DNA of 64,000 bases from Escherichia coli (GTDB lineage: Bacteria > Pseudomonadota > Gammaproteobacteria > Enterobacterales > Enterobacteriaceae). A program made the position numbers. Location of the stretch: NCBI RefSeq assembly GCF_048403405.1, contig NZ_CP183129.1. The stretch is one strand, 5' to 3'. Of this stretch, positions 40,601 through 46,600 are shown piece by piece; position 1 is the stretch's first letter; every line of letters starts with the position of its first letter.

Positions 40601-43600
40601 ACCTTGCTTTCGTTATCGAGAATCAGGCGCAGCATCGGGCGGAGTTGCTCCTGCATCGTGGTGGACGGCTCAACCTCTTCAGTCAGGTGTGCAATCTCCT
40701 GCACCGCATTCACATACGCCATTTCGCTGGCGATGAGTTCGTCCCACTGTTCTTCCGTTGCCAGGCGTAACATGAGCTGGCTTTTTTCGACGAGTTGTTG
40801 CCAGGCGAAATACAAATGCGGTGCGTGGTTCATCAGACTGGGTCCTGAATCAAAGAAGGGGAGAGTAACGACTCTTTCCAGGCATCGGCAATATTGCGCA
40901 TTAATGCTTCCACTTCTTCGACTGCGGAGACATCGTTGCGTAAATTGGCTTGCAGCAAACGCCTGACCATATAGCTATAAAGAGCAATCAAGTTTTGGGT
41001 TAATTCGTCATTGCTCTCTTCATCAAGACTCACCCGCAGTCCGTTCTCAATAATGTTGATCGCTTTTGACAAAGAGACGCCTTTGCCTTGCTGATTGTTG
41101 TCCTGCATAAACAGGCGCGCTCTAACCAGTGCGCTCAGCACTCCATCAAATAGCATGGTGACCAGCTGCTGCTGGCTGGCGCTCATTACGGCGCTTTCGA
41201 CGCCAATTTGTGCATAGGCCTGGGTGCCTTTTGCCGTGTACATGACCTGTCTCCCGATGAATATTGATTACTTGGAATTACTGTTGTTTTCGAACTGCTG
41301 CGTTAAGTAGCTGCTGGTGCTGTTTAACGAGGTCATTAAAACGTCCAGTTGGGTAAATTGTTCTTTGTAGCGCGCGACCTGCGCATCAATGCGATCGCTG
41401 GCGGCGTTGTAGTCTTTAGTTAACTTATTCAGGGTCTTACTAACGCCATCGGTAGCGGCTTTAATAATGCCTGTTGTCGAAAGCCAACTGGTCAGGTTGC
41501 TGCCGATGGTGGTTGTGATGCCGGTTTTTTTACCATCGCCAACAATCAATGCACCTACGCCGCTGGCATCTTTTTTCAATGCAGCGGTGAGTTTGTCGGC
41601 ATCCAGTTCCAGTTTGCCATCGCTGGGATCGGTCGTGATACCAATCTGCGCCAGCGTTTTATAGTTGGAAGAACTGACGGTATTACTCAGCATCGATTTC
41701 AACTGCGTCTGAATCGTCCGCAGCGTGGAGTCGCCGAGCAGTGCGCCATTGCTTGAACTCTGGCTATCAGCTCCCGCATCTACGGCGGTGTATTTGGTCA
41801 GGCTGCTGAAGGTATCTATTAGCGAGTTATAGGCATTCACCCAGTCTTTAATCGCCGTTTGCGCTTTGGAGGTGTCCTGAGTGATGGTTAGCGTCTGGTT
41901 GCCCGTGGTGACATCGTTCAGGTTCAGGGTGATGTTTTCCAGCGCGTCGCTGATGGTGTTGCTGCTGTTCTCAATGGCGACGTTGTTGACCGTCAGCTGC
42001 GCATTCTGGGCGGCGACCGAGACCTCCATACCGTTGCTACTGGCACTGGCGTCATAGCCCATAAAACTTTGTAGCGCATCATTACCGCTGACCGAGAGTG
42101 TCATCGCATTATCAAGGCCGGTGTCATTTGATGTGACTGACAGACGATATTCACCGTTACCCACGTTAATGATGCTCGCACTTACGCCCGCTTTTGCGTT
42201 GTTGATGGCATCACGGATCCCGCTTAACGACGAGTTAGCCGCGCTGATATCAATGGTGATCGGCTCTTTGTCGCCGCCTTGTTGAAGGGTGAGTTTGCTG
42301 TCGCTGGTGGCGATCGCCGTTTTCGTATCATCTCTGGTGGTGCGCGTGGTCAGGGTTTGCGCCTGCGCCAGATGGGTGACGCTGATGGTGTATTTCCCGG
42401 CGATGGCGTTACCCGCGGTGGTGGCACTGAACGCGGTGGTGCTGCTGGTGGTGCTGGTGGCGGAAAAAAGATCGGCTTTAGACAATGCAGTATTGGCGGT
42501 CTGGAAAGTCGTCAGCGCGCTTTTCAGCGTACCGTAGGCGCTAAGTTTAGCGGTAAACGACGATTGCTGATTTGAAATAGGGGTTAGCGTCGCTTTTTGC
42601 GCGGCGGTGAGGCTATCAAGGATTGAACTTAAATCCAGGCCTGACCCGACTCCCAGCGATGAAATACTTGCCATGCGATTTCCTTTTATCTTTCGACACG
42701 TAAAACGAATACCGGGGTTATCGGCCTGAATTGCGCAAAGTTTACGTTTAATTGTTTTTTTTAATAGCGGGAATAAGGGGCAGAGAAAAGAGTATTTCGG
42801 CGACTAACAAAAAATGGCTGTTTGTGAAAAAAATTCTAAAGGTTGTTTTACGACAGACGATAACAGGGTTGACGGCGATTGAGCCGACGGGTGGAAACCC
42901 AATACGTAATCAACGACTTGCAATATAGGATAACGAATCATGGCACAAGTCATTAATACCAACAGCCTCTCGCTGATCACTCAAAATAATATCAACAAGA
43001 ACCAGTCTGCGCTGTCGAGTTCTATCGAGCGTCTGTCTTCTGGCTTGCGTATTAACAGCGCGAAGGATGACGCCGCAGGTCAGGCGATTGCTAACCGTTT
43101 TACTTCTAATATTAAAGGCCTGACTCAGGCTGCACGTAACGCCAACGACGGTATTTCTGTTGCACAGACCACCGAAGGCGCGCTGTCCGAAATCAACAAC
43201 AACTTACAGCGTATTCGTGAACTGACGGTTCAGGCGACGACCGGAACTAACTCCACCTCTGACCTGGACTCCATTCAGGACGAAATCAAATCCCGTCTTG
43301 ATGAAATTGACCGCGTATCCGGCCAGACCCAGTTCAACGGCGTGAACGTACTGTCAAAAGATGGCTCGATGAAAATTCAGGTCGGCGCGAACGATGGCGA
43401 AACGATTACTATTGATCTGAAGAAAATTGACTCTGATACGCTGGGGCTGAATGGGTTTAATGTGAACGGCAAGGGGGAAACGGCTAATACGGCAGCAACC
43501 CTGAAAGATATGTCTGGATTCACAGCTGCGGCGGCACCAGGGGGAACTGTTGGTGTAACTCAATATACTGACAAATCGGCTGTAGCAAGTAGCGTAGATA

Positions 43601-46600
43601 TTCTAAATGCTGTTGCTGGCACAGATGGAAATAAAGTTACAACTAGCGCCGATGTTGGTTTTGGTACACCAGCCGCTGCTGTAACCTATACCTACAATAA
43701 AGACACTAATTCATATTCCGCCGCTTCTGATGATATTTCCAGCGCTAATCTGGCTGCTTTCCTCAATCCTCAGGCCGGAGATACGACTAAAGCTACAGTT
43801 ACAATTGGTGGCAAAGATCAAGATGTAAACATCGATAAATCCGGTAATTTAACTGCTGCTGATGATGGCGCAGTACTTTATATGGATGCTACCGGTAACT
43901 TAACTAAAAATAATGCTGGTGGTGATACACAAGCTACTTTGGCTAAACTTGCTACTGCTACTGGTGCTAAAGCCGCGACCATCCAAACTGATAAAGGAAC
44001 ATTCACCAGTGACGGTACAACGTTTGATGGTGCATCAATGTCCATTGATGCCAATACATTTGCAAATGCAGTAAAAAATGACACTTATACTGCCACTGTA
44101 GGTGCTAAGACTTATAGCGTAACAACAGGTTCTGCTGCTGCAGACACCGCTTATATGAGCAATGGGGTTCTCAGTGATACTCCGCCAACTTACTATGCAC
44201 AAGCTGATGGAAGTATCACAACTACTGAGGATGCGGCTGCCGGTAAACTGGTCTACAAAGGTTCCGATGGTAAGTTAACAACGGATACGACTAGCAAAGC
44301 AGAATCAACATCAGATCCGCTGGCAGCTCTTGACGACGCTATCAGCCAGATCGACAAATTCCGCTCCTCCCTCGGTGCCGTTCAAAACCGTCTGGATTCC
44401 GCAGTCACCAACCTGAACAACACCACTACCAACCTGTCCGAAGCGCAGTCCCGTATTCAGGACGCCGACTATGCGACCGAAGTGTCCAATATGTCGAAAG
44501 CGCAGATCATCCAGCAGGCAGGCAACTCCGTGCTGGCAAAAGCCAACCAGGTACCGCAGCAGGTTCTGTCTCTGCTGCAGGGTTAATCGCCTGAATGCCT
44601 CTCAAACCCCGCTCCGGCGGGGTTTTTTACAATTGGCTTTTTGCGTAACCCCCAAATAACCCCTCATTTCACCCACTAATCGTCCGATTAAAAACCCTGC
44701 AGAAACGGATAATCATGCCGATAACTCATATAACGCAGGGCTGTTTATCGTGAATTCACTCTATACCGCTGAAGGTGTAATGGATAAACACTCGCTGTGG
44801 CAGCGTTATGTCCCGCTGGTGCGTCACGAAGCATTGCGCCTGCAGGTTCGACTGCCCGCGAGCGTGGAACTTGACGATCTGCTACAGGCGGGCGGCATTG
44901 GGTTACTCAATGCCGTCGAACGCTATGACGCCCTACAAGGAACGGCATTTACAACTTACGCAGTGCAGCGTATCCGTGGCGCTATGCTGGATGAACTTCG
45001 CAGCCGTGACTGGGTGCCGCGCAGCGTGCGACGCAACGCGCGTGAAGTGGCACAGGCAATAGGGCAACTGGAGCAGGAACTTGGCCGCAACGCCACGGAA
45101 ACTGAGGTTGCGGAACGTTTAGGGATCGATATTGCCGATTATCGTCAAATGCTGCTCGACACCAATAACAGCCAGCTCTTCTCCTACGATGAGTGGCGCG
45201 AAGAGCATGGCGATAGCATTGAACTGGTTACTGATGATCATCAGCGAGAAAACCCGCTACAACAACTGCTGGACAGTAATCTGCGCCAGCGGGTGATGGA
45301 AGCTATCGAAACGTTGCCGGAGCGCGAAAAACTGGTATTAACCCTCTATTACCAGGAAGAGCTGAATCTCAAAGAGATTGGCGCGGTGCTGGAGGTCGGG
45401 GAATCGCGGGTCAGTCAGTTACACAGCCAGGCCATTAAACGGTTACGCACTAAACTGGGTAAGTTATAACGTCAGTAAATGCCGCACTTTAATTTTGACT
45501 ACCAGGAGTTCTTAATGATGGTGCAGCACCTGAAAAGACGGCCATTAAGCCGCTATCTTAAAGACTTTAAACACAGCCAGACCCATTGCGCGCATTGCCG
45601 TAAATTACTCGACCGCATTACCCTCGTTCGCGACGGCAAAATAGTGAATAAAATCGAGATTTCCCGCCTGGACATGCTGCTTGATGAAAATGGCTGGCAA
45701 GTGGAACAAAAATCATGGGCGGCATTGTGCCGATTCTGCGGTGATTTACATTGCAAAACGCAGAGTGATTTTTTCGATATTATCGGCTTTAAGCAATTTC
45801 TTTTTGAGCAAACTGAAATGAGCCCAGGTACGGTGCGTGAATATGTCGTTCGTCTGCGCCGTTTGGGTAATCATCTACACGAGCAAAATATTTCCCTCGA
45901 ACAGCTGCAGGACGGTTTCCTTGATGAAATCCTCGCCCCGTGGCTGCCCACCACCAGCACCAACAATTACCGCATTGCGTTACGGAAGTATCAACACTAT
46001 CAGCGTCAAACGTGTACCGGACTTGTGCAGAAATCCTCCAGCCTGCCTGCTTCTGATATATATTAAATAAGAATAAGATGTAGCGGAGTTGTTTTTGTGT
46101 TTACAAACAATGGCTCTACACTGCAAACAGACATAACAACATTAGGGGTGAATATGAAATTAGCACATCTGGGACGTCAGGCATTGATGGGTGTGATGGC
46201 CGTGGCGCTGGTTGCGGGCATGAGCGTTAAAAGTTTTGCAGATGAAGGTCTGCTTAATAAAGTCAAAGAGCGCGGCACGCTGCTGGTAGGGCTGGAAGGA
46301 ACTTATCCGCCGTTCAGTTTTCAGGGGGATGACGGCAAATTAACCGGTTTTGAAGTGGAATTTGCCCAACAGCTGGCAAAACATCTTGGCGTTGAGGCGT
46401 CACTAAAACCGACCAAATGGGACGGTATGCTGGCGTCGCTGGACTCTAAACGCATTGATGTGGTGATTAATCAGGTCACCATTTCTGACGAGCGCAAGAA
46501 AAAATACGATTTCTCTACCCCGTACACCATTTCCGGTATTCAGGCGCTGGTGAAAAAAGGTAACGAAGGCACCATTAAAACGGCTGATGATCTGAAAGGC

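Follow-up and report, generated by a model that had tools for sequence, protein, structure and literature searches.

The flagellin gene and its flanking genes

The window, a stretch of 64,000 nt of Escherichia coli DNA, carries a fliC gene on its plus strand, flanked by the divergent fliD and the downstream fliA (Table 1); these two neighbors define the fliC locus. The gene order, fliT-fliS-fliD divergent from fliC-fliA-fliZ-tcyJ-dcyD, is common to the window, K-12, E2348/69, and strain 4621. A sequence-only reading of this DNA had described a FliC of 548 residues, which is borne out by the open reading frame and by the Pfam flagellin domains of its product. The latter comprise Flagellin_N (PF00669) at residues 5 to 140 (E = 2.8e-46; 157.5 bits versus a cut-off of 26.6), the FliC domain at residues 337 to 452, and Flagellin_C (PF00700) at residues 462 to 546 (E = 5.4e-32; 110.4 bits versus a cut-off of 23). 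Genes of the same sequence (100% nucleotide identity) are annotated "FliC/FljB family flagellin" in many RefSeq E. coli genomes. A pseudogene is ruled out, since the reading frame is intact, full-length, and identical to these annotated genes.

Table 1. Features of the fliC locus, in window coordinates
Feature	Coordinates	Strand	Basis or detail
fliD (filament cap), divergent neighbor of fliC	41268..42674	-	ORF; annotation of near-identical NZ_CP103479.1
Divergent sigma-28 promoter of fliDST	42718..42744	-	TAAACTTT-N11-GCCGATAA; predicted motif
Sigma-28 (FliA) class-3 promoter of fliC	42837..42863	+	TAAAGGTT-N11-GACGATAA; predicted, motif match
fliC CDS, assigned as H6-type flagellin	42940..44586	+	548 aa plus stop; ORF list, Pfam, 100% nt identity to RefSeq genes
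N-terminal conserved part, aa 1-170, predicted D0/D1 filament-core segments	42940..43449	+	94% aa identity to K-12 FliC
Variable center that determines the H antigen, aa 171-453	43450..44300	+	23% aa identity to K-12
(GCTACT)2 = (Ala-Thr)2, aa 338-341, site of in-frame repeat-number polymorphism	43951..43962	+	Regex position
C-terminal conserved part, aa 454-548, predicted D1/D0	44301..44586	+	92% aa identity to K-12; TAA stop at 44584-44586
Intrinsic terminator of fliC	44607..44628	+	CCCCGC-TCCG-GCGGGG, then T6; terminator scan and sequence
fliA (sigma-28), downstream neighbor of fliC	44750..45469	+	ORF; annotation of NZ_CP103479.1

The putative sigma-28 promoter of fliC, TAAAGGTT-N11-GACGATAA, shows two mismatches with respect to the consensus TAAAGTTT-N11-GCCGATAA, and its motif is unchanged between the window, K-12, and E2348/69. 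The 265-nt spacer that separates fliD from fliC differs from that of K-12 at 2 positions. At the other end of the gene, the terminator begins about 20 nt past the stop codon and aligns with the K-12 fliC terminator. Judging from these motifs, fliC would be transcribed from the sigma-28 class-3 promoter, with transcription ending at the intrinsic terminator.

Conserved ends and variable center

In a global alignment with the FliC of K-12 (b1923; 498 residues; NC_000913.3), 160 of 170 residues are identical in the N-terminal part and 87 of 95 in the C-terminal part, versus 66 of 287 in the central part, whose DNA is about 30% identical to that of K-12. The sequence-only reading had proposed exactly this arrangement, with conserved termini enclosing a serotype-determining center unlike that of K-12, and the alignment upholds it. 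The variable region truly stops near residue 457 (around position 44310), and the stretch flagged by that reading (43450-44300) nearly coincides with it. The G+C content is 0.445 in the center versus 0.494 and 0.552 at the ends. The center is also rich in Ala (17.3%), Thr (17.0%), and Gly (10.6%) over residues 171 to 453, as had been noticed. Since the K-12 central region is likewise rich in Thr, Ala, and Gly, composition does not separate the flagellin types.

Assignment to H6

The H type was assigned by comparison with strains that either have a published serotype or carry one in the name of their record. Over its 1647 nt, the gene is 100% identical to the fliC of the STEC strain 2012C-4221, typed as O162:H6 (PMC10608928, Table 2). 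Its central 851 nt show 7 differences (99.2% identity) from the EPEC prototype E2348/69 (O127:H6), and the central domain is 99.5% identical to that of the RefSeq record "Escherichia coli O99:H6 strain CU42ET-1." The H-typing that the sequence-only reading had thought feasible thus gives a clear answer, H6, drawn from serotyped strains. Furthermore, the central domain is present at 95.8% nucleotide identity or more in 233 of 5,426 complete E. coli genomes. The next group comprises 219 genomes, including RM14516 (published as O17:H18), and is alignable over the full length of the center at 65 to 66%; no genomes lie between about 66% and 95.8%, and the remainder of the 5,426 are without a match.

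The window differs from NZ_CP103479.1, the record of strain 4621, by 4 mismatches in 64,000 positions, and a single flagellin match is found in that record, at one place. Within the 64-kb window, the part of the source genome in view, there is no second flagellin locus (flkA, fllA, flmA, or fljB-like). In the literature passages mentioning Ecol_881 and KOr019, no serotype or ST was found. We consider it almost certain that positions 42940-44586 correspond to the chromosomal fliC of a strain near-identical to the clinical isolate 4621 and that this gene encodes an H6 flagellin.

An H6 genotype could nevertheless belong to a non-motile (H-) strain, in which flagellar expression would be defective elsewhere in the genome. 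Lack of motility despite an intact fliC is common among E. coli isolates, and flhDC, flg, flh, and mot/che lie outside the window. However, every fli gene of the window (fliA, fliZ, fliD, fliS, fliT, and fliE to fliR) is annotated as intact in the near-identical genome, and the fliC promoter motif matches that of K-12 exactly, so that we regard a non-motile strain as unlikely. Far less probable still is that the allele specifies a type other than H6 but akin to it, for instance H18 or a further member of the same flagellin clade. Such a reading could draw on the 219 genomes that align over the whole center, the O17:H18 strain among them, and on the 77% overall identity of members of this group to the window protein. 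Yet their central 851 nt reach only 65 to 66%, whereas the serotyped H6 strains stand at 99.2 to 100%, and the 233 H6-type genomes all fall between 95.8 and 100%, with a gap down to about 66%; an H18-type flagellin was rejected on the basis of this central identity. Finally, K-12 fliC (H48) resembles the gene in the ends of its protein and in its nearly identical promoter region, but identity to it, for which the alignment was checked, was not found and the H48 type is refuted, the center sharing 23% of its residues and about 30% of its DNA in a protein of 548 rather than 498 residues.

With H6 as the retained assignment, the predicted H6 label of the strain is readable from the fliC sequence. 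This call is useful for epidemiological typing, albeit of limited practical value, and H6 is common to many E. coli strains, including E2348/69 and the O162:H6 and O99:H6 strains. There is nothing new in the H6 finding itself, the allele being identical to those of dozens of deposited genomes.

Allelic features and comparison with known flagellins

Repeat number varies in frame within the (Ala-Thr)n tract of the outer region: the window carries two GCTACT units, while 3 to 6 are found elsewhere in H6 genomes, and one match length implies 8. Tandem Repeats Finder reports no array in fliC, as two units fall under its threshold, and the polymorphism is visible only through allele comparison. No prior description of length variation among H6 fliC alleles was found in the literature searched. 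When, to locate the repeat with respect to the published D4 dimer site (H7 residues N319 and N323), an 87-residue piece was compared with the PDB, only H6 chains were matched, so that the H7 numbering is not transferable.

The fliC 3' untranslated region (UTR) of the window is short and is missing most of the K-12 region annotated as the FliX small RNA (sRNA), a configuration present in 200 of the 5,426 genomes. An Rfam search of positions 42600-44800 (E ≤ 1) returned no family, and there was apparently no FliX model among those searched; the only hits, all below the threshold, aligned the terminator hairpin with the extremities of two models, istR and RsmY. One may speculate that slipped-strand variation in GCTACT number tunes the sheath or aids escape from anti-flagellar antibodies, or that the short 3' UTR removes or alters a sigma-28-dependent sRNA regulator of flagellar synthesis in this lineage, but we hold either proposal to be unlikely. 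If true, either would represent a small variation, specific to the lineage, on a system already known. The repeat and the short UTR are small comparative-genomics observations that may interest those working on flagellin outer domains or flagellar sRNAs.

The closest structural relatives of the window protein are the EPEC H6 flagellins solved by cryo-EM (PDB 7SN7 and 7SQJ; Kreutzberger et al. 2022, PMC8931119), which are its top PDB matches and cover residues 1 to 548 (1092 bits for 7SQJ and 1088 bits for 7SN7). The H6 outer domains are described in the same work, in which those of the EPEC filament tetramerize into a sheath with a seam. From these published data on the E2348/69 protein, which is 98.5% identical, we infer the domain architecture and the sheath of the window flagellin. 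Residues 1 to 170 and 454 to 548 would form the D0/D1 coiled-coil core that polymerizes into the filament, and residues 171 to 453 would form the surface-exposed outer domains D2 to D4, bearing the H6 epitopes.

E2348/69 FliC (WP_000079695.1) has the same length of 548 residues, the same locus, and the same (Ala-Thr)2 repeat number. It differs from the window protein by 8 substitutions (T100S, T106D, S139A, E154Q, T228A, G280R, L337V, and T361A, window residue first). At the nucleotide level, the two genes show 46 differences, 39 of which are located in the "conserved" ends, and 29 of the 46 sit within nt 138 to 468, in the N-terminal part. The fliC-fliA spacer also distinguishes the two strains, being long (320 nt) and K-12-like in E2348/69 and 163 nt in the window. 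The fliC of 2012C-4221, on the other hand, shows no difference within the gene, and the same identity over 1647 nt extends to at least about 40 further RefSeq genomes (4621, MS6198, ECONIH1, MS 69-1, and others).

More distant flagellins share the overall plan with the window protein and diverge in the center. The group of RM14516 (O17:H18) has the same architecture, with a length of 554 to 556 residues in the two members fetched and 77% overall protein identity in the sequenced members, but its center differs in about a third of its nucleotides and it represents a different H antigen. K-12 FliC (H48) has the same locus, promoter, and D0/D1 ends (92 to 94% amino acid identity), whereas its center is essentially unrelated, its chain is 50 residues shorter, and its gene is followed by a longer 3' UTR, annotated as the sRNA FliX.

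The flagellin locus and its divergent centre

Judged by its sequence and surroundings, the 548-aa ORF is fliC at its usual chromosomal locus, because the order fliT-fliS-fliD, divergent from flagellin-fliA-fliZ-tcyJ-dcyD, is common to strain 4621 (RefSeq annotation, NZ_CP103479.1), K-12, and E2348/69, the O127:H6 EPEC prototype. Strain 4621, isolated from human blood in Houston, carries the window at positions 2148013-2212012 with 4 mismatches over 64 kb (window positions 7252, 27824, 35457, and 59622), and the central 25 kb (30000-54999) is also ~100% identical in TUM1226, TUM14771, GN02461, MS 69-1, and KOr019. 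According to the NZ_CP103479.1 annotation, the window opens inside the yersiniabactin high-pathogenicity island: the 3' portion of ybtS comes first, then a tyrosine integrase and a tRNA-Asn (1-2870). Between fliE and yedL (33893-35331), a small inserted element has left remnants, annotated by RefSeq in strain 4621 as a DUF5503 pseudogene with a frameshift and a fragment of an integrase.

Features of the fliC region (percentages are identities to K-12 FliC)
Feature	Window position	Strand	FliC residues	Source or score
fliC ORF, 548 aa	42940..44586	+		ORF list
Divergent 468-aa ORF beside fliC	41268..42674	-		ORF list
239-aa ORF downstream of fliC	44750..45469	+		ORF list
Predicted sigma-28 promoter of fliC	42837-42863	+		2 mismatches to consensus
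Predicted divergent fliD promoter	42718-42744	-		Motif
Terminator hairpin and T-run, 3' of fliC stop codon	44607-44628	+		Terminator scan, sequence
Flagellin_N			5-140	Pfam, E 2.8e-46
Enterobacterial "FliC" domain			337-452	Pfam
Flagellin_C			462-546	Pfam
5' conserved end			1-170	94%, global alignment
Variable centre	43450-44300		171-453	23%, global alignment
3' conserved end			454-548	92%, global alignment
(GCTACT)2	43951-43962	+	338-341	

FliC was compared with the 498-aa K-12 protein (b1923) by global alignment, and a multiple alignment was also made. The sequence-only reading had described a 548-aa flagellin with conserved termini and an Ala/Thr/Gly-rich central domain unlike that of K-12, and each of these points holds: the divergence lies in the centre (Ala 17.3%, Thr 17.0%, Gly 10.6%), and the interval that it proposed for this region is only ~10 nt off at the 3' side. 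At the DNA level, the centre is ~30% identical to K-12 and the ends are 88-89% identical; the G+C content is 0.445 in the centre versus 0.494 and 0.552 in the ends. The predicted sigma-28 promoter (TAAAGGTT-N11-GACGATAA) lies in a 265-nt spacer with two differences from K-12, none of them inside the motif.

Assignment of the flagellar type

A megablast search with the whole gene as query, run on 5,426 complete E. coli genomes, matched its conserved ends in 5,373 and gave full-length 100% matches in dozens, including strain 2012C-4221, whose serotype is O162:H6 (PMC10608928, Table 2). The central 851 nt alone are at least 95.8% identical in 233 of the 5,426 genomes, so that 4.3% carry the H6 central domain; they include E2348/69 (99.2%, 7 differences), the record "Escherichia coli O99:H6 strain CU42ET-1" (99.5%), and strain NC101 (99.5%). 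Beyond these, blastn in its sensitive mode aligned the centre in just 219 further genomes, at 65-66% identity, among them RM14516, published as O17:H18; two fetched members of this group show 77% overall identity to the window protein. The central-region identities have a bimodal distribution in which ~30 percentage points stay empty between the two groups, and on this ground the allele is H6 at the sequence level. The gene thus allows H-typing through allele comparison, as had been proposed, here by means of serotyped strains rather than a curated H-reference set.

Mosaic pattern, repeat number, and the 3' spacer

Comparison of 42940-44586 with E2348/69 fliC (positions 2491-4137 of its locus sequence) gave 46 nucleotide differences. 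Since 39 of these cluster in the two conserved ends, 5' and 3', against just 7 in the 851-nt serotype-specific centre, ends and centre may well have different recombination histories, as the pattern suggests. Transfer of the centre as one block, combined with recombination between the ends and the local background, would be expected to leave such a mosaic.

Length differences among H6 alleles come in steps of 6 nt, owing to a perfect (GCTACT)n repeat encoding (Ala-Thr)n from aa 338. The window and E2348/69 have n=2, DA33137 n=3, AR_0067 n=4, Z1002 n=5, and GN02050 n=6, and FDAARGOS_1371 probably has n=8, as implied by its match length. When the 233 H6 genomes were sampled at even spacing, n was 2 in 29, 3 in 15, 4 in 10, 5 in 5, and 6 in 1, exceeding 2 in about half. 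Our literature search found no description of this polymorphism among searchable papers.

The fliC-fliA spacer (44587-44749) measures 163 nt, whereas it is 320 nt in K-12, E2348/69, and GN02050. In K-12, a segment of it that carries two REP-like palindromes bears the annotation of the sRNA FliX; there the window instead has ~60 nt of unrelated sequence, closed by a terminator. The short form occurs in 200 of the 5,426 genomes; since the FliX segment is replaced, these strains probably either lack a K-12-type FliX or have one that differs greatly.

Relation to the solved H6 filament

Both the allele and the antigen are already known: many deposited sequences are identical, and a close relative has a solved structure. 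The best solved-structure matches, PDB 7SQJ (548 aa) and 7SN7 (546 aa), span aa 1-548. In the H6 filament, D0/D1 form the canonical core, and the central region encodes three outer domains, D2-D4, that form tetramers and, through them, an outer-domain sheath with a seam (PMC8931119). Because only 8 positions differ from the solved sequence (T100S, T106D, S139A, E154Q, T228A, G280R, L337V, and T361A; window residue first), we infer that the window flagellin shares this architecture and would likewise build a D0/D1 core surrounded by a D2-D4 sheath.
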